This document shows positions 18,782 through 63,325 of a DNA stretch of 64,000 nucleotides, piece after piece. Source of the DNA: Eubacteriales bacterium. GTDB taxonomy: Bacteria > Bacillota > Clostridia > Oscillospirales > CAG-272. Position 1 is the first letter of the stretch; the number at the start of each line of letters is the position of its first letter. The stretch spans positions 24 through 64,023 of the forward strand of contig JAZRMT010000146.1 of NCBI GenBank assembly GCA_045647805.1, written 5' to 3'. The translations under genes were made by a program, and so were the position numbers. A model generated the notes under the pieces. It saw nothing but the letters and a program-made list of their open reading frames with translations. It was not told where the DNA came from and searched no databases.

Positions 18782-19037
18782 TTGTATAACGAAAACCATA
18801 CGAAAGTTGCGTGGTTCGGTAGAGGTTGACCGATGATAAAAAACCAAACAAGGGATAGAGACAGTATGTATTATGTGAAAGGCTCCCTTCGGGATGGAGC
18901 TGGATTTTGCAAAGCAAAAGACTGAGGGAGAGTGCGGATGAGCAATCGAGGCTTAATTTGTGGGAACATACGTAGACTCCTTCCGTCTTGCTCCGCAAGC
19001 CACCTTCTCGCTGTGGCTCGGTCACTTCTCGGGGCAA

Positions 19038-19092
19038 CCTCATCCACCACTTCGTGGTCCCCCTTCCCCAACAGGGAAGGCTAACGAAGCCG
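19038..19092 (-). repeat. Copy of a structured intergenic repeat (core CCCTGTTGGGGAAGGGGGACC...GGTGGATGAGG) shared with 61918-61957 and 62139-62178
   Basis: CCTCATCCACCACTTCGTGGTCCCCCTTCCCCAACAGGGAAGGCTAA is nearly the reverse complement of the two copies near rbr. It contains the hairpin CCTTCCC-CAACA-GGGAAGG. Confidence 0.7.
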
Positions 19093-19304
19093 CAATGCTA
19101 GCTCTCTGAGGGAGGCTTATGGGAAATCCGTTTGCAGGTAGCAAGTATCAATTGCATGGCCGGCAGGCAAATCTAAAACGCACTTGTGCGTTTCTTTTTG
19201 ACTTTTTGTTTTGAAAGGTTCATGCACTTCTTTTGAAGGGCGTTTTGCAGCTTCGAAAGGATGAGAGACGAATAAGGTATGGTAGTGTGACGGACAGAAA
19301 ACTA

Positions 19305-58111: not shown

Positions 58112-59425
58112 ATGAAAGCTTATCTTGCAATTGATATAGGTGCTTCCAGCGGTAGACATATTGTCGGATATATGCAGGACGGTAGTCTTGTTACTGAGGA
58201 AATATACCGCTTTTATAACGGTATGGACAGCCTTGAAGGTCACCTGGTATGGGATACCGACAGACTTCTTACTGAGGTCAAGGAGGGAATTAAGAGAACG
58301 CTCGTTAAATATCCCGAGACGGTCAGCCTTTCCATTGACACGTGGGGCGTTGACTACGTTCTTATGAAGGGAGATAAGGAAGTAAAGCCTACCTATGCTT
58401 ACCGTGATTCCAGAGTGGAGGAGCCGATCAAGGAGGTTCATTCGATCATTCCCTTCGAGAAGCTTTATTCGAGAACAGGAACTCAGTTTAATAAGTTCAA
58501 CACAATTTATCAGCTTTATGCCGACAAGAAGGCGGGCAGGCTCGAGGGGGTTACCGATTTTCTTATGATTCCCGAGTACCTTATGTATAAGCTGACAGGA
58601 GTTAAGAAAAAGGAGTTTACCGAGGCATCTACCACCGGCCTTGTGAATGCCGAAACGCTCGAGTATGACGAATGGATATTTGATACTCTCGGACTTCCCC
58701 GTGCGCTTATCAAGAAAATAGATAAGCCAACAGATGCAGTAGGCAGAATTTCTGACGAGGTGGCAAAGGAGGTTGGCGGAAGTCCTCTTGTTGTTCTTTG
58801 TGCAACTCACGACACGGGAAGTGCCGTTGAGGCGATAGACATGGAAAACGATTCGCCTTACATATCCTCCGGTACTTGGTCGCTTCTCGGAGTTAAGACC
58901 GAGCGTCCCATCACCGATATGAAGAGCTGTAATTCCGGCTATTCCAACGAGGGCGGCGTAGGATATAACCGCTATCAGAAGAATATCACCGGAATGTGGA
59001 TAATTCAGAGTCTTAGGAAGGAGCTTTGCCCCGAAACCTCCTATTCGGATATTGCCGATATGGCGGCAAGAAGCGAATATACCGAGGTGTTCGACGTAAA
59101 CGACGATACCTTCATGGCTCCCGACTCTATGAAGGAGGCTATCAGGAGCTATCTTGTGGGTGAGGGCAAGCCTGCACCCGTATCCGATGCCGATTATTTC
59201 AATTCGGCATATCACAGCCTCGGATACTGCTATGACATCGCTATTAAGGATTTGGAGAACAACACCGGTAAGAGCTATCCCGATATATATATCGTGGGAG
59301 GCGGTGCAAAGAACGACTATCTTAACGGCTTGACCGAAAAATATACCGGAAAGAGAGTTGTGGCTCTTCCCATAGAGGCAACGGCTATCGGAAACCTAAA
59401 AATACAGATTACAAGGGATAAATAA
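58112..59425 (+). CDS. rhaB: Rhamnulokinase (FGGY kinase)
   Basis: N-terminal motif AIDIGASSGR, FGGY-family length, and operon context with rhaA and rhaD. Confidence 0.85.
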   Translation: MKAYLAIDIGASSGRHIVGYMQDGSLVTEEIYRFYNGMDSLEGHLVWDTDRLLTEVKEGIKRTLVKYPETVSLSIDTWGVDYVLMKGDKEVKPTYAYRDSRVEEPIKEVHSIIPFEKLYSRTGTQFNKFNTIYQLYADKKAGRLEGVTDFLMIPEYLMYKLTGVKKKEFTEASTTGLVNAETLEYDEWIFDTLGLPRALIKKIDKPTDAVGRISDEVAKEVGGSPLVVLCATHDTGSAVEAIDMENDSPYISSGTWSLLGVKTERPITDMKSCNSGYSNEGGVGYNRYQKNITGMWIIQSLRKELCPETSYSDIADMAARSEYTEVFDVNDDTFMAPDSMKEAIRSYLVGEGKPAPVSDADYFNSAYHSLGYCYDIAIKDLENNTGKSYPDIYIVGGGAKNDYLNGLTEKYTGKRVVALPIEATAIGNLKIQITRDK

Positions 59426-60670
59426 ATGGACAATTACGAATACGCTAAGAAAAAATACGCTGAGTTCGGTATTGATACCGATCTCGCAATAGAGAAGCTC
59501 TCCTCTGTTACCGTGTCGATGCATTGCTGGCAGGGTGATGACGTTACCGGCTTTGATTCGGCAGAGGAACTTTCGGGAGGAATACAGACAACCGGAAATT
59601 ATCCCGGCAGAGCAAGAACCCCGGACGAGCTTATGGCGGATATTGATAAGGCACTTTCGCTTATCCCCGGCAAGAAAAAGCTTAATCTTCACGCCTGCTA
59701 TGCAATATTCGAGGACGGTGAGGTAGTAGGACGTGATAAATTTGAGCCTAAGCATTTTGCAAAGTGGTTACAATTCGCTCAGCAGAGAGGTATGGGCATT
59801 GATTTTAATCCTACCTTCTTCGCTCATCCTATGGTTAAGGACAACCTCACTCTTTCGTCTCCCGACAAGTCCGTAAGAGACTATTGGATTGCTCACGGAA
59901 AGGCGTGCATAAGAATAGCCGAGTATTTTGCCACCGAGACCGGTGTTCCCTCTGTTATTAACTTCTGGATCCCCGACGGATATAAGGAGATACCCGCTGA
60001 CAGATATTCTCCCAGAGCAAGATTCAAGGCATCGCTTGACGAAATACTTGACACCCCTTACGATAAGTCGAAGGTTTACGTTACTCTTGAATCTAAGGTG
60101 TTTGGAATCGGACTTGAATCCTACACCGTAGGCTCTGCCGAATTCTGCCTTTCCTATTCAACTCAGAAGGGAATTACTCCCCTTATGGATAACGGTCATT
60201 ATCATCCCACGGAGATGGTATCGGATAAGATACCTTCGCTTTTGCTCTTCAATGATAAGATCGCACTTCACGTAACAAGAGCGGTACGCTGGGATTCAGA
60301 CCACGTTGTTATCCTTGATGACGAAACTAAGGAGATCGCTAAGGAGATCGTAAGATGCGATGCTCTTGACAGAGTGTTTATAGCACTTGATTATTTCGAT
60401 GCATCTATTAACCGTGTTGCGGCGTGGGTTATCGGTATGAGGAATTTCCAGAAGGCACTTCTTTCTGCTCTTCTGTTTCCTAATGAAGAACTGAAGGCGG
60501 CACAGGACGATGCAAATTATACTAAAATGCTCGCCCTCAGCGAGGAGTTCAAGACCATGCCGTTTGACGCCGTTTGGAATGAGTATTGCCAGAGATGCGG
60601 TGCTCCCGTGGGTATGAAATGGTATGACTTGATTATGGAATACGAGAGGGAAGAACTCTCGAAAAGATGA
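59426..60670 (+). CDS. rhaA: L-rhamnose isomerase
   Basis: The start abuts the rhaB stop. The motif SMHCWQGDDVTGF and a length of about 414 aa are typical of RhaA. Confidence 0.9.
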   Translation: MDNYEYAKKKYAEFGIDTDLAIEKLSSVTVSMHCWQGDDVTGFDSAEELSGGIQTTGNYPGRARTPDELMADIDKALSLIPGKKKLNLHACYAIFEDGEVVGRDKFEPKHFAKWLQFAQQRGMGIDFNPTFFAHPMVKDNLTLSSPDKSVRDYWIAHGKACIRIAEYFATETGVPSVINFWIPDGYKEIPADRYSPRARFKASLDEILDTPYDKSKVYVTLESKVFGIGLESYTVGSAEFCLSYSTQKGITPLMDNGHYHPTEMVSDKIPSLLLFNDKIALHVTRAVRWDSDHVVILDDETKEIAKEIVRCDALDRVFIALDYFDASINRVAAWVIGMRNFQKALLSALLFPNEELKAAQDDANYTKMLALSEEFKTMPFDAVWNEYCQRCGAPVGMKWYDLIMEYEREELSKR

Positions 60671-60722
60671 CTGAATTTTTTTAAAAAAAGTAAATAATTA
60701 ATTACATATTAGGAGAAAAACA

Positions 60723-61532
60723 ATGAAAAACATCCTTGAAGCACCCTTTGTAAAAGAAATGTGCGAAGCAACCGCCAATATGTACCGTCTTGGCTGGGAC
60801 GAGAGAAACGGCGGTAACATCAGCTACCTTCTTGATGAAAAAGAGGTAGGCGAGTATCTTGATCTCACTAACGTTATTCGTACCATTCCCACCGGCTTCG
60901 ATGCTTCTGCTCTTATTGGCAGAATCTTTATCGTTACCGGTACCGGTAAGTATTTCAAAAACGTAGAGAAGGATCCCGAGTATAACCTCGGTATCGTTCG
61001 TATTGCTAAAGACGGAACCACCGCAGAGCTTCTTTGGGGTTGGTCGGACGGCGGTAAGTTTACCTCCGAGTTCCCCGCACACATGATGAGCCACATCTCC
61101 AGACTCTCTGTTGATCCCACCCACAGAATAGTAATGCACTCCCACCCCACTTATACTATCGCGATGAATGCCGTGTGCCCCATTGACGAGAAGGACTTCA
61201 CTCACAGACTTTGGCAGTCCAATACCGAGGCAGTTGTCGTATTCCCTGACGGTGTAGGAGTTCTTCCTTGCATGGTATGCGGAACTAATGAGATCGGCAT
61301 TGCTACCGCAGAGAAGATGAAGAGCTTCAGACTTGTTGTCTGGACCAACCACGGTATCTACGGTACCGGTAAAACTATGGATGAGGCGTTCGGACTTATC
61401 GAGACCGTGGAGAAGACCGCACAGATCTATATGCTCGCGCTCGGTCACACCGTAAACGTTATTCCCGATCAGATCATAAAGGAGCTTGCGGCACTCTGGA
61501 ATCTTACCCCCCTTGAAGGTATTCTCGACTAA
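60723..61532 (+). CDS. rhaD: Rhamnulose-1-phosphate aldolase (class II aldolase)
   Basis: AGGAG RBS. The motif GWDERNGGNIS and the histidine pattern HMMSH...HSHP are typical of RhaD. Confidence 0.88.
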   Translation: MKNILEAPFVKEMCEATANMYRLGWDERNGGNISYLLDEKEVGEYLDLTNVIRTIPTGFDASALIGRIFIVTGTGKYFKNVEKDPEYNLGIVRIAKDGTTAELLWGWSDGGKFTSEFPAHMMSHISRLSVDPTHRIVMHSHPTYTIAMNAVCPIDEKDFTHRLWQSNTEAVVVFPDGVGVLPCMVCGTNEIGIATAEKMKSFRLVVWTNHGIYGTGKTMDEAFGLIETVEKTAQIYMLALGHTVNVIPDQIIKELAALWNLTPLEGILD

Positions 61533-61540
61533 GAGCCGAC

Positions 61541-61607
61541 ATATTTGGTGATAACCGCCGTTTTTCGACAAGCTCGCAATAGGTAACTATTGCTTCGGTC
61601 GGAAGAA
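61541..61607 (+). repeat. Copy 1 of a 67-bp direct repeat containing an extended hairpin
   Basis: ATATTTGGTGATAACCGCCGTTTTTCGACAAGCTCGCAATAGGTAACTATTGCTTCGGTCGGAAGAA. The inner perfect stem pairs GCAATAG with CTATTGC, and the outer stem pairs CGAC with GTCG. Confidence 0.9.
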
Positions 61608-61653
61608 CGACGCTTCTCAAACAAATCTGTCTGTCTCTTAGAAGAACTATTGG

Positions 61654-61720
61654 ATATTTGGTGATAACCGCCGTTTTCCGACAAGCTCGCAATAGGTAAC
61701 TATTGCTTCGGTCGGAAGAA
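61654..61720 (+). repeat. Copy 2 of the 67-bp direct repeat (one mismatch)
   Basis: Identical to 61541-61607 except T to C in the TTTTTCG/TTTTCCG segment. The period is 113 bp. Confidence 0.9.
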
Positions 61721-61770
61721 TGATGCTCCCAAAAAAACAGCTCGCAACAATCGACTATTAATTTAAATCA

Positions 61771-61817
61771 AAAAAGCTGAAAACCCAAGATTTTTGCAAA
61801 GGTTTTCAGTTTTTTTA
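61771..61817. terminator. Bidirectional rho-independent terminator
   Basis: CTGAAAACC pairs with GGTTTTCAG. AAAAAA lies upstream and TTTTTTT downstream. Confidence 0.75.
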
Positions 61818-61827
61818 TAAACGGATA

Positions 61828-61908
61828 TTACTTGAAATATCTCTCGAGAAGACCTGCGAATGCCTTGCCATGACGAGCCTCGTCACGAGCCATTTCGTGT
61901 ACGGTGTC
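61828..61908 (-). pseudogene. Detached copy of the last 26 codons plus stop of rubrerythrin (fragment 1)
   Basis: The minus strand encodes [26 protein letters not shown]. The intact rbr gene ends ...[27 protein letters not shown]. The differences are mostly synonymous. Confidence 0.8.
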
Positions 61909-61917
61909 TTTAGAATT

Positions 61918-61977
61918 CCCTGTTGGGGAAGGGGGACCGTGTAAGCGGTGGATGAGGAGCTACCACGACTTAGTTAT
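61918..61977 (+). repeat. Structured repeat, copy adjacent to rbr fragment 1
   Basis: CCCTGTTGGGGAAGGGGGACCGTGTAAGCGGTGGATGAGGAGCTACCACGACTTAGTTAT. It is nearly identical to 62139-62198 and its core matches 19038-19080 in inverted orientation. Confidence 0.85.
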
Positions 61978-62045
61978 TTGCTGAAAAAAAGGGAGCGAAT
62001 GAAAAAAGGGAGCGAATCAATTTCACTCCCTTTAATTGTATTGAA

Positions 62046-62129
62046 TCACTTACCGAAATATCTCTCAAGAAGTCCTGCGAAAGCCTTGCCATGACGAGCC
62101 TCGTCACGAGCCATTTCGTGTACGGTATC
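62046..62129 (-). pseudogene. Detached copy of the last 27 codons plus stop of rubrerythrin (fragment 2)
   Basis: The minus strand encodes [27 protein letters not shown] using different terminal codons (GGT AAG TGA) from the intact gene (GGC AAA TAA). Confidence 0.8.
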
Positions 62130-62138
62130 TTTAGCCTT

Positions 62139-62198
62139 CCCTGTTGGGGAAGGGGGACCGTGTAAGCGGTGGATGAGGAGCTACCACGACTTAGTTAT
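62139..62198 (+). repeat. Structured repeat, copy adjacent to rbr fragment 2
   Basis: Same sequence as 61918-61977 apart from one or two substitutions. Confidence 0.85.
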
Positions 62199-62221
62199 CT
62201 GCTGAAAAAAAGGGAGCGAAT

Positions 62222-62252
62222 GAAAAAGGGAGTGAACTGAAATTCACTCCCT
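62222..62252 (-). terminator. Rho-independent terminator of rbr
   Basis: On the minus strand, GGGAGTGAA pairs with TTCACTCCC and is followed by TTTTT. A similar hairpin follows fragment 2. Confidence 0.75.
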
Positions 62253-62266
62253 CAGTTTGCATCAAC

Positions 62267-62815
62267 TTATTTGCCGAAATATCTCTCAAGAAGTCCTGCG
62301 AATGCCTTGCCGTGGCGAGCCTCGTCACGAGCCATTTCGTGTACGGTGTCGTGGATAGCATCGAGGTTAAGAGCCTTTGCTCTCTTAGCAAGGTCGAACT
62401 TGCCCTCGGTTGCACCGTTCTCAGCGGCAACTCTCATCTCGAGGTTCTTCTTGGTAGAGTCGGTAACTACCTCACCGAGAAGCTCGGCGAACTTAGCTGC
62501 GTGCTCTGCTTCCTCGTAAGCAGCCTTCTCCCAGTAGAGACCGATCTCGGGATAGCCCTCTCTGTGAGCAACTCTTGCCATTGCAAGGTACATACCAACC
62601 TCGGTGCACTCACCCATATAGTTAGCTCTGAGATCAGCGATGATATCCTCGGGAGAACCCTGAGCTACACCTACTACGTGCTCTGCTGCCCAAGTAAGGG
62701 TGTTCTCCTCCTGCTTATTGAACTTTTCGGCGGGAACCTTGCACTGGGGGCATCTCTCGGGAGCAGCATCTCCCTCGTGAACGTAACCGCATACGGAACA
62801 TACAAACTTTGCCAT
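62267..62815 (-). CDS. rbr: Reverse rubrerythrin (N-terminal rubredoxin-like CxxC...CxxC, C-terminal ferritin-like diiron domain)
   Basis: The start is moved to the ATG at complement 62813-62815 ([28 protein letters not shown]...), which follows GGAG. Diiron motifs EE.EHA and EARH are present. Confidence 0.9.
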
Positions 62816-62864
62816 AATGAAAAATCTCCTTTTGTTAAGTGTTTTTTTGTTTTTGATTTGGGAT

Positions 62865-63257
62865 TTATCCCTGTTTTTTTCGACAGTTTTCGCACAGTCC
62901 GAAGAACTCAACGTGACATTCTTCCACTGAAAAACCTTCGTGCGGGGCAGCTTTGCTTACTAACGAGCAGTTATTAAGCTCGATTGTGACATCGGCAACG
63001 TGGCCACAATTCTTACAGGTGATGTGATGATGCTCTCGAAGAGTAAAATCAAACCTGTCGTTTGCATCCCTAAGCTTCAAGCGTCTGATAGAGCCTTCCT
63101 CTGCTGCCTCGGCAAGTATTCTGTAAACTGTTGCTCGGCTTATACCAGGGTACTTTTCGTGTACCGCATCGTAAACCATACCTGCGGAAGGGTGGTTTGT
63201 CATACTGTCAAAGACCTCGGAAACAATGCTTTTCTGTAAAGTGTTTCTCTTTGTCAT
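62865..63257 (-). CDS. Fur-family transcriptional regulator, probably a PerR-type peroxide sensor
   Basis: 130 aa with a winged-helix N-terminus ([10 protein letters not shown]). It has the HHH motif and two CxxC pairs (CKNCGH, CENC). It lies immediately upstream of rubrerythrin on the same strand. Confidence 0.85.
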
Positions 63258-63296
63258 TGTGATAAATCGTCCTTACTAGGACTCTGTCCTGATAAT

Positions 63297-63325
63297 ATTA
63301 TAGCAAAACGAAAACCGCTTGTCAA
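63297..63325 (-). promoter_or_regulatory. Consensus promoter (TTGACA-17 nt-TATAAT) for the Fur-family gene and rbr, with an ATAATATTAT palindrome overlapping the -10
   Basis: The minus strand reads TTGACAAGCGGTTTTCGTTTTGCTATAATATTATCAGG. The Fur/PerR-box-like ATAAT/ATTAT half-sites overlap the -10 hexamer. Confidence 0.65.

Follow-up and report, generated by a model that had tools for sequence, protein, structure and literature searches.

C-terminal displacement arrays were reportedly described at the Rhs, CDI and T6SS effector loci by Jackson and colleagues in 2009, and insertion with long target duplication is said to have been described by Nobusato and colleagues in 2000. The Rhs, CDI and T6SS arrays resemble the locus studied here in that orphan 3' ends line up behind a gene body that stays constant, each displaced downstream when another strain supplied a new end (Kirchberger and colleagues 2017, PMC5361080). 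In those arrays, by contrast, the tips that arrive are distinct toxins accompanied by immunity genes, are selected for diversity, and come in kilobase units with no repeat at the joint. Integrative elements (phages, ICEs, IMEs and CIMEs) are alike in that a new end restores the target gene, leaving the old one beyond the insert as a direct repeat, and in that tandem accretion is possible. Insertion with long target duplication shares with our locus direct repeats of tens to hundreds of bp that vary in length and come with no recognisable mobility gene, and several of its repeats overlap gene 3' ends; there, the inserts are whole restriction-modification complexes and the repeats are near-identical (Furuta and colleagues 2010, PMC2853133). 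Finally, the REP/REPIN/BIME families, the IS200/IS605-derived PATE and the RPE are, like the repeat described below, short dispersed non-coding hairpins that lie mostly just after genes and have covarying stems in modular or nested arrangements. RPE copies also lie in frame inside ORFs, as do some copies of the repeat, a likeness of layout. To our knowledge, none of the REP, REPIN, BIME, PATE or RPE families has been described as carrying replacement gene ends, and a literature search of limited extent found no description of hairpin repeats with such ends.

The array lies behind rbr on the minus strand of the window, by which we mean the whole 64-kb stretch of DNA that was analysed. The working gene (62267-62815) is an ORF for a reverse rubrerythrin of 182 amino acids, with an N-terminal rubredoxin-like domain and a ferritin-like domain; its homologues, at most 97% identical, carry PF21349 and PF02915. 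Its last 84 nt (X1, 62267-62350) form the current gene end. The original prediction held that a unit of about 220 bp occurs twice behind the stop codon, and both direct reading and repeat finding confirmed this, giving two units of 221 nt (unit 1, 62046-62266; unit 2, 61825-62045) with 88% identity overall. Each unit opens with a terminator hairpin, which a spacer separates from a two-hairpin element of 48 nt, and closes with a copy of the final 26-27 rbr codons.

In unit 1, the intrinsic-terminator-like hairpin T1 (62226-62253), which a terminator scan reported as a 12-pair stem followed by a T run, sits directly 3' of the working rbr stop codon. It is followed by a spacer that sequence comparison identified as locus-specific (CATTCGCTCCCTTTTTTTCAGCAGATAACTAAGTCGTGGTAGCTC, 62178-62222); its first 17 nt duplicate the terminator's 3' arm and T run. 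Then comes copy 1 of the 48-nt repeat (CTCATCCACC-hairpin 1-GGTCCCCCTTCCCCAACAGGGAAGGCTAAA, 62130-62177), whose hairpin 1 is partly degraded, and, beginning directly at the 3' edge of this repeat, the displaced rbr end X2 (62046-62129), which comprises 28 codons including the stop and encodes a tail of RYFGK before its TGA. Unit 2 opens with T2 (62005-62033), a terminator-like hairpin that is homologous to T1 and passes the terminator scan, and continues with a spacer (61957-62001) that differs from that of unit 1 by 1 nt. Copy 2 of the repeat (61909-61956) has a broken 3' arm in hairpin 2, with GGGAATTC in place of GGGAAGGC. The last displaced end, X3 (61828-61908), encodes a tail of RYFK before its TAA, has unrelated DNA downstream, and is most likely the original rbr end of the locus. 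After X3 lies T3 (61770-61816), a 16-nt inverted repeat with T runs that is unrelated to T1 and T2; it has a loop of 15 nt and fails the terminator scan, and is probably the original rbr terminator.

The final 75-84 nt of rbr are present three times, as X1, X2 and X3, with 95% mutual identity, and all three encode the same C-terminal peptide with an optional G before the final K; tails of both kinds, RYFGK and RYFK, are found among natural rbr orthologues. As had been claimed, the two displaced copies spell this peptide with other codons, and the similarity to rbr starts abruptly at the same nucleotide in both, directly after ...GGGAAGGCTAAA. We found 9 substitutions among the three ends, all of them synonymous or stop-to-stop, and a single indel of 3 nt, which is in frame. 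X1 and X2 differ at 7 codons, all synonymous; synonymous and non-synonymous codon differences between working and displaced rbr ends stand at 12:0; and the X2 and X3 branches carry 5:0 together with the in-frame indel. Because the ends differ only synonymously and by an in-frame indel, we conclude that each of them was working until recently. The rest of the unit has diverged unevenly: about 13 of 39 positions distinguish T1 from T2, far more than in the remainder of the unit, whereas spacer and core differ at only 3 of 94 positions, a likeness that, set against the divergence of the terminators, needs either gene conversion or a young element. The purely synonymous divergence and the differences between T1 and T2 agree with the earlier view that the copies are not a recent simple duplication. 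Moreover, since the two units differ from each other, an artefact of collapse or duplication is unlikely at rbr.

Neither an empty site nor an rbr allele of the same species was found, with nothing closer than about 84% nucleotide identity among the sources searched, namely 60 relatives, an exact-protein look-up, metagenomes scanned for a 23-mer from the rbr end, the contigs of the closest rbr proteins, and 213 genomes of the genus queried with terminator and spacer. We therefore infer the order of events at rbr. The FUR-rbr gene order is also present in the syntenic locus L104, where rbr is followed by its own terminator and an extra phosphoesterase gene, without the repeat.

What had been taken as a repeated element behind rbr proved to be so only in its last 48 nt. 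The preceding 45 nt (CATTCGCTCCC...GTAGCTC) are unique to the rbr locus, and this spacer has no second locus in its own genome or in the 213 genus genomes searched. The 48-nt element itself begins with (A)CCTCATCCACC and finishes with GGGAAGGCT(T/A/G)..., and its termini are not inverted repeats. It occurs in about 14-18 copies in its own genome, a MAG of 192 contigs that is 78% complete with 5.3% contamination, and several of these copies lie at contig ends; the search with the 48-nt core gave 18 hits there. It is also present in MAGs of other ruminant and animal-gut Clostridia, where we found 31 exact-core stretches; in all, we counted 87 distinct copies in 11 genomes. Hairpin 1 covaries, with 42 different stem-loops among 100 copies, 94 of which are perfect. 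A further copy in the window (19038-19084, plus strand) belongs to an intergenic cluster of hairpin modules and has no flank duplication. At L110, L115, L137 and L138, the repeat, read on its reverse strand, forms an insert of 48 nt (16 codons) in frame within ORFs of 644-1278 amino acids. An Rfam scan of 61300-62900, with E values up to 10, returned chance-level matches only, and no ribozyme, intron or known sRNA.

As a short dispersed palindromic repeat, the element is comparable to REP and REPIN sequences, but it has neither a GTAG nor a CGTC tag, and no linked RAYT was found in the genome, which is 78% complete. Unlike a MITE, it lacks inverted termini, and its flanking repeats are either absent (about two-thirds of copies) or 18-140 nt long, not short and fixed. 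Hairpins near both ends and the lack of inverted termini fit the IS200/IS605-derived PATE; the long duplications in one-third of copies do not, nor is there a conserved tetra- or pentanucleotide 5' of the insertion. The RYYYAAC...GTTRRRY boxes of integron attC sites are absent from the 48-nt core, and the cassettes described below lie inside their own targets and not in one array.

The layout seen at rbr, in which a gene is followed by its replacement end, 0-95 nt, the element, and the displaced original end, recurs at about one-third of the 87 copies in the 11 genomes; at 31 of the 87, the left flank recurs no more than 14 nt from the repeat's 3' edge. Three of about 12 loci in the own genome show it: besides rbr, these are a sugar kinase gene (C141, 39 nt) and a galM-like gene (C145/C53, 88-100 nt, period 146). 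The predicted tie between genome-wide copies of the element and duplicated target sequence is thus borne out. In an exact-word test, a word taken from the left flank reappeared no more than 14 nt past the element for 22 of 74 copies, compared with 46 of 20000 random sites (0.23%); chance recurrence of flanks beside the element is excluded. Target genes include lysS, asnS, ftsK, atpG, glyA, udk and galM, and strings of orphan 3' ends stand behind an intact gene at rbr, galM (C145/C53 and L184), atpG (L170), L116 and L185. The flanking repeat varies between 18 and 140 nt, and the similarity of working and orphan ends stops at the stop codon or, in L109 and L164, at the start codon. The same layout appears in independent assemblies from other studies and hosts, including single-unit cases inside long contigs.

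The arrangement is polar. Between the element's 3' edge and the start of the displaced end there are always 0-14 nt, and the working gene lies on the element's 5' side in every case. In 28 cases it is the right copy that abuts the 3' edge; the left copy alone abuts the element in 2, and both copies abut it (X-core-X) in about 10. Inspection of the left boundaries, which read CAC, CGC, ACC, CTG, AAA, ATG and others, showed no conserved target motif before them. About two-thirds of the repeat copies, among them most of the intergenic ones, have no duplication, indicating that duplication is not an obligatory product of insertion.

In comparison with the Rhs, CDI and T6SS arrays, the cassettes built on the 48-nt repeat encode the same peptide, carry no extra genes, come in units of 110-220 nt, and have housekeeping genes as targets, with all joints located at the 3' edge of a single 48-nt hairpin repeat. 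Unlike integrative elements, they lack both an integrase and an element body, share a single repeat family across many genes, also occupy gene 5' ends, and have repeats that vary from 18 to 140 nt. In contrast to the restriction-modification inserts, they contain little beyond the hairpin repeat, and their flanks are often synonymously diverged.

We found 79 synonymous and 28 non-synonymous codon differences between working and displaced ends, with nucleotide differences distributed over the three codon positions as 24/22/91. Individual genes show the same pattern in synonymous to non-synonymous counts: 14:0 in asnS, 6:0 in udk, and 5:0 in ftsK, including a CGT/AGA pair. Divergence of this purifying-selection type indicates that working and orphan ends have different alleles or species as their sources. 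Some pairs are 100% identical (C141, L109, L116 and the internal units of L170), and these are explained equally well by simple duplication of the target in situ. At galM, comparison of G145 and G147 revealed a gene body with 517 of 610 positions identical (85%), followed by a last stretch of 173 nt, composed of the replacement end and the core, with 168 of 173 identical (97%), and then by orphans that differ. Judged by this jump in identity, galM appears to be the only clear case of one cassette common to two species; in the SYENSIKNNG gene (L116 versus L172) and a spoIVA-like gene (L185 versus L162), identity runs on with no jump at the cassette.

We propose, with a probability of roughly 0.55, that the array consists of stacked displaced gene ends left by small non-autonomous cassettes that spread by homology and successive displacement, with no integrase. 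Each cassette combines a replacement for the end of the target gene, 18-140 nt that run as far as the stop or start codon, with 0-95 nt of flanking sequence from the donor (at rbr, the terminator and spacer) and with the 48-nt two-hairpin repeat. A cassette placed between the gene body and the former end would leave the protein unchanged and turn the former end into an untranslated orphan. This agrees with the earlier proposal that the unit acts as an insert with its own rbr 3' end that shifts the previous end downstream, and that this happened more than once. Spread would occur through homologous recombination by the host into orthologous genes, with the carried end and an orphan of the donor array serving as homology arms. 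Stacking would arise by out-of-register recombination or by repeated arrival, yielding at rbr the order X1-T1-E, X2-T2-E and the original X3-T3, and the middle of the repeats would later have been homogenised by gene conversion. The founding joint, which links the repeat's 3' edge with a position further upstream in the gene, is element-specific and polar. Its most likely origin is replication slippage that depends on the hairpins, or else illegitimate, one-sided joining of a DNA end that a hairpin protects. We count the anatomy, the polarity, the recurrence at many genes and genomes, the purifying-selection type of divergence between working and orphan ends, and one cross-species cassette as demonstrated. 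There is precedent for stacked orphan 3' ends arising through one-sided homology in Rhs and T6SS arrays (PMC5361080), and for inserts flanked by long target duplications (PMC2853133).

More tentatively, the cassette might be a minimal mobile element of a new kind, 110-220 nt long, a 'gene-end parasite' that finds the orthologous gene in a new host by means of the coding end it carries, crosses species, and has its joint made by a candidate single-strand DNA or RNA-templated activity. It would swap the ends of essential genes (lysS, asnS, ftsK, atpG, glyA and rbr) while leaving the protein unchanged, and for that reason would be hard to select against.

It is possible, though unlikely, that the element homes with the help of a dedicated enzyme supplied in trans, which would cut at the 3' edge of the repeat and mobilise the repeat together with a variable 5' flank, the carried end guiding insertion; candidate enzymes would be an HUH/Y1-type single-strand nuclease, a hairpin-primed reverse transcriptase, or another recombinase. 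The fixed and polar 3' joint with its variable 5' extent speaks for such an enzyme, as do the high frequency (about one-third of copies), the at least 15 independent founding events at different genes, and the hairpins kept by covariation. The clean in-frame insertions inside ORFs further indicate that the repeat moves on its own. The own genome, which is 78% complete, does contain one PF01797 gene (C144:139-495), a typical IS200 tnpA of the Y1 type, but this lone gene has no cores around it, and no enzyme is linked to any copy of the repeat. Nor did inspection reveal a conserved target tetranucleotide at the left boundaries, terminal inverted repeats are lacking, and Rfam gave no ribozyme or intron match.

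We consider it rather improbable that a MITE- or REP-like insertion created a long, variable target-site duplication in situ, with the copies diverging afterwards. The roughly ten cases in which both copies abut the element and the several pairs with 100% identity (C141, L109, L116 and L170 internal units) are what such an event would leave, and the phenomenon has been described for restriction-modification genes (PMC2853133). A dead copy, however, would be expected to diverge mostly at non-synonymous sites, whereas the orphans have diverged almost purely synonymously (asnS 14:0; X2 and X3 branches 5:0). The similarity also halts exactly at stop or start codons, which would be invisible to a DNA-cutting mechanism; the galM cassette occurs in two species with different orphans; and most intergenic copies lack a duplication.

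The original prediction read the units as remnants of about 140 bp left by integrative elements that had inserted into the rbr 3' end; they would be CIME-like relics, trimmed by deletion, of integrase-mobilised elements with that end as their attachment site. Elements that attach at gene 3' ends and supply a replacement end are well known, and at L096, in another gut Firmicute, an orphan 72-nt rbr 3' end with a terminator lies about 130 nt from the gene for a 415-amino-acid tyrosine integrase. The idea was reasonable, given L096, but is not what we see here: integrase elements that use the rbr 3' end exist elsewhere, and the rbr array does not display one. What recurs is the 48-nt dispersed hairpin repeat. 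An equally small arrangement, lacking an element body, is found at no fewer than 15 other, unrelated genes in 9 genomes and at gene 5' ends (L109 and L164), always on that repeat. No integrase lies near any core in the own genome, where tblastn with the L096 integrase gave only weak tyrosine-recombinase matches on other contigs, none near a core; as predicted, the ORFs of the 64-kb window include none near rbr. Large elements would have left a distant duplicate of the right flank at cores without a duplication; none was found, and the search turned up only an IS end beside C11. Two independent deletions to identical end points would also be needed, and we regard such an origin as highly improbable.

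Only a very slight chance attaches to an assembly artefact in which a metagenome assembler strung together strain variants of the rbr end, since, although the MAG is fragmented, several core copies lie at contig ends and the assembly does not fix the unit number of arrays such as C145/C53, the joint between core and gene end must exist in the reads, the same architecture occurs in independent assemblies, including single-unit cases inside long contigs, and the rbr units differ in a pattern unlike random strain noise. Two further candidates were ruled out: a diversity-generating retroelement, because the substitutions show no adenine specificity and encode identical peptides, and group I or group II intron 3' ends or an IStron, because no model matched and the size does not fit.

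What is new here is the 48-nt element, a dispersed repeat that on the sequence evidence appears to produce gene-end displacement at many housekeeping genes in animal-gut Clostridia. If our reading of the array as stacked displaced ends holds, then hairpin repeats of the REP/MITE type would be more than passive intergenic passengers, and the mechanistic question would become how the joint at the hairpin's 3' edge is made. The same reading would account for many of the small 'pseudogene fragments' and tandem repeats found after genes in MAGs, and in annotation orphan ends should be called neither genes nor assembly errors. In gut Clostridia, the ends of housekeeping genes would be swapped frequently, and in a polar manner, for imported and synonymously recoded copies, and the stacks of former ends would form a natural record of recombination between strains and species at single-gene resolution. 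A mobile sequence of about 100-200 nt would then be able to enter essential genes harmlessly.

The layout and coordinates that the original prediction gave for the rbr locus were correct on direct reading. Read along the minus strand, the region begins with a FUR/PerR-type regulator gene (62865-63257), followed by rbr (62267-62815). The latter encodes a reverse rubrerythrin of 182 aa; PF21349 and PF02915 are present in its relatives. Direct reading and repeat finding placed two 221-nt units after rbr (62046-62266 and 61825-62045). Each comprises, in order, a terminator-like hairpin (T1, 62226-62253; T2, 62005-62033; both from a terminator scan), a 45-nt spacer, a 48-nt two-hairpin element and a copy of the last 26-27 rbr codons, identified by comparison with rbr (X2, 62046-62129; X3, 61828-61908; the current end is X1). 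The element copies here are slightly decayed: only 3-4 pairs of hairpin 1 remain, and unit 2 has a broken hairpin 2. A hairpin with T runs, unrelated to T1 and T2, lies 3' of X3 (61770-61816), and a converging aldolase gene comes next.

The stretch directly following the aldolase gene (61541-61737) contains two tandem copies, with a period of 113, of another hairpin-bearing sequence of 84 nt. A related pair of hairpin repeats lies on contig C144 of the same genome (~730-930), downstream of an IS200 tnpA, and these sequences may constitute a second small repeat family. A locus of a related species (L104) is syntenic with window positions 59400-63300 (FUR-rbr-aldolase-RhaA, ~79% nt identity) and carries, between rbr and the aldolase gene, a 340-aa metallophosphoesterase gene missing from the window, where its place is occupied by the rbr units and the 113-nt repeats. 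Other rbr arrangements include two tandem paralogues ~1.3 kb apart in the same genus (L020, G012:C94) and a short rbr ahead of genes for a 401-aa flavin-reductase-rubrerythrin fusion and a rubredoxin (L103).

We found that X1, X2 and X3 differ by 9 substitutions in all, each synonymous or stop-to-stop, and by one in-frame 3-nt indel (GK-stop versus K-stop); both tails are present in natural rbr orthologues. The X2 and X3 branches carry five or six of the changes. In copies that had lost their function at a local duplication, roughly three quarters of the changes would be expected to alter the peptide. The copies were once working ends of the gene. Between the units, ~13 positions differ in the 39 nt after the stop (spacer and terminator loop), whereas the spacer plus the 48-nt element differs at only 3/94 positions. 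The units are therefore mosaics, in which the gene end and terminator derive from diverged alleles and the element is young or homogenised.

Within the source genome, a 192-contig MAG, the part that recurs elsewhere is confined to the 48 nt immediately preceding each rbr copy, with 18 matches, several at contig ends. This element consists of (A)CCTCATCCACC, hairpin 1, GGTCCCCCTTCCCC, a loop, GGGGAAGGCT and a few A/T-rich bases. The base of hairpin 1, ACC...GGT, is conserved, and its extension varies freely yet stays self-complementary: among 100 copies we counted 42 different sequences, with a perfect stem in 94. Hairpin 2 is a G+C-rich stem of 7 bp. The element had no match in Rfam, and inspection for inverted termini and a GTAG or CGTC tag revealed none. 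Other hairpin modules are often nested within either loop (L109, L139, L172, C164/C64), and inverted doublets occur in some relatives. At four loci of other MAGs (L110, L115, L137, L138) the element lies in frame inside Glu/Pro-rich ORFs of 644-1278 aa, with at most 3 copies per gene; it spans 16 codons there, and its reverse-strand reading gives a 15-residue peptide. These in-frame copies, which resemble Rickettsia palindromic elements, indicate that the element can insert on its own.

A search of species-representative genomes for the exact core GGTCCCCCTTCCCCAACAGGGAAGGC gave 31 stretches, all in gut MAGs of ruminants or other animals (uncultured Ruminococcus sp., Eubacteriales, Clostridia RGIG6173 and RGIG8750, Oscillospiraceae SIG708). 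Ten of these genomes carry 1-34 copies at up to 3 mismatches, and the distribution is patchy inside the window's own genus (7/121 genomes). Several other repeats were encountered. An intergenic cluster of different hairpin modules (e.g. ...CTCGCTGTGGCTCGGTCAC...) at 18880-19110 closes with a copy of the 48-nt repeat, and its modules are also nested in the repeat's loops at C164/C64, C28 and C3/C79. In an uncultured Ruminococcus sp. MAG (L111:3506-3743), three tandem repeat copies with a 95-nt period accompany another hairpin module, with no gene end between them. Finally, GCCAAGTCGGAGGCCAAGCGGTCTTAGGAAGACAAAATA is repeated at least 20 times in the source genome (G000; contig C11:12324-12363 and ~20 other contigs, often at contig ends) and probably marks the end of an insertion sequence whose many copies break up the assembly.

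The original prediction had proposed a search of the genome and its relatives. That search found the element dispersed, with a left-flank segment repeated within 14 nt after its 3' edge at 31/87 distinct copies with enough flank. By a stricter exact-word test, 22/74 element copies scored, versus 46/20000 random sites of the source genome. Two further loci of that genome share the rbr layout, with the second copy beginning 1-3 nt past the element's 3' edge: a sugar-kinase gene end (C141; 39 nt, copies identical) and a galM-like gene end (C145/C53; 88-100 nt, tandem period 146), whose last copy has a homologous but different tail (IEKL-stop versus IMKI-stop). The layout is polar. The right copy abuts the element's 3' edge in 28 cases, in ~10 of which the left copy also abuts its 5' end; only the left copy abuts in 2 cases, and low-complexity or array effects explain both. 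Wherever the layout could be interpreted, the intact gene is on the element's 5' side. The 3' ends used, across MAGs, belong to rbr, kdgK-like, galM-like (three species), udk, glyA, atpG, lysS, ftsK, asnS, spoIVA-like (two species), rbfA and other genes, names in other genomes being read from C-terminal peptides rather than profile searches. Gene 5' ends are used at L109 (low-molecular-weight phosphatase) and L164, where the gene points away from the element. Similarity between working and orphan (displaced) ends stops at the stop codon (0-4 nt beyond) or, in the 5'-end cases, exactly at the start codon. Arrays of at least two units occur at L116, L170, L180, L184, L185 and C145.

Across 17 pairs, working and orphan ends show 79 synonymous versus 28 non-synonymous codon differences (24/22/91 nucleotide differences by codon position), or 58:9 once two very diverged galM pairs are left out. 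By gene, the ratios are 14:0 for asnS, 6:0 for udk, 3:0 for lysS and atpG, and 5:0 for ftsK, including CGT versus AGA. Several pairs are mosaic, with an identical middle and synonymous differences at one edge, either the tail (L119, L170, C145) or the left edge (L134, L185); such a pattern would be expected if diverged alleles had recombined and then undergone gene conversion, and not from in-place target duplication. The galM-like genes of genomes G145 and G147 are 85% identical in the gene body (610 aligned nt) and 97% identical (168/173) over the last 173 nt, comprising the replacement end and element, while their orphans differ from each other and from the working ends. Replacement end and element have thus moved, or been converted, between species after the genes diverged, a single example of such sharing.

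With the cassette anatomy (replacement end, 0-95 nt, element), polarity, recurrence, allele-type divergence and one inter-species transfer established, we propose that a locus of the form gene-X'-spacer-element-X would be carried into the orthologous gene of another strain or species by ordinary homologous recombination. The left crossover would fall within the gene or X', and the right one between the orphan of the donor and the end native to the recipient, leaving the latter and its native downstream DNA as a new orphan. Out-of-register recombination with an allele already bearing a unit would add another. At rbr, the stacking would be X1-T1-element, X2-T2-element, X3-T3, with X3-T3 (T3, the hairpin at 61770-61816) the putative original end of a presumed empty site. 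For Rhs and T6SS loci, the same displacement logic has been put forward to account for orphan 3' ends (PMC5361080); here the scale is much smaller and the protein is unchanged.

At least 15 genes must each have acquired the founding joint independently, and in every one it sits at the element's 3' edge. An active enzyme cutting at that edge is a serious alternative to enzyme-free origins, of which two can be envisaged: a nascent strand could stall just past stable hairpin 2 and re-anneal upstream, yielding a tandem duplication ending at the element, or an incoming strand, its heterologous tail already trimmed back to the hairpin, could be attached by one-sided (homology-facilitated) illegitimate joining. 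In-situ long target duplication (PMC2853133) is consistent with the identical pairs, but is at odds with the synonymous divergence, the codon-exact boundaries and the shared galM cassette. The original prediction read the units as remnants of integrative elements. An rbr 3' end does appear to serve an integrase element in another gut Firmicute, yet no integrase lies near any element copy in the source genome, and a single repeat family is associated with many genes, at 5' as well as 3' ends, which speaks against that reading. In the other Firmicute (L096:1730-3169, metagenome contig ERZ507062 NODE-45), a 415-aa tyrosine integrase gene in divergent orientation lies ~130 nt from an orphan rbr 3' end of 72 nt that has its terminator; this looks like the att site of an integrative element targeting the rbr 3' end. 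An assembly artefact is unlikely, as the layout recurs in independent assemblies, though the count of two units at rbr is that of one MAG assembly.

A limited literature search found no description of gene-end replacement linked to a hairpin repeat; the cassettes combine known kinds, namely hairpin repeats, gene-end-restoring insertions and C-terminal displacement. The rbr finding is more general than was visible from that locus: rbr is one site of a real, family-wide and polar process of gene-end replacement tied to a 48-nt hairpin repeat.
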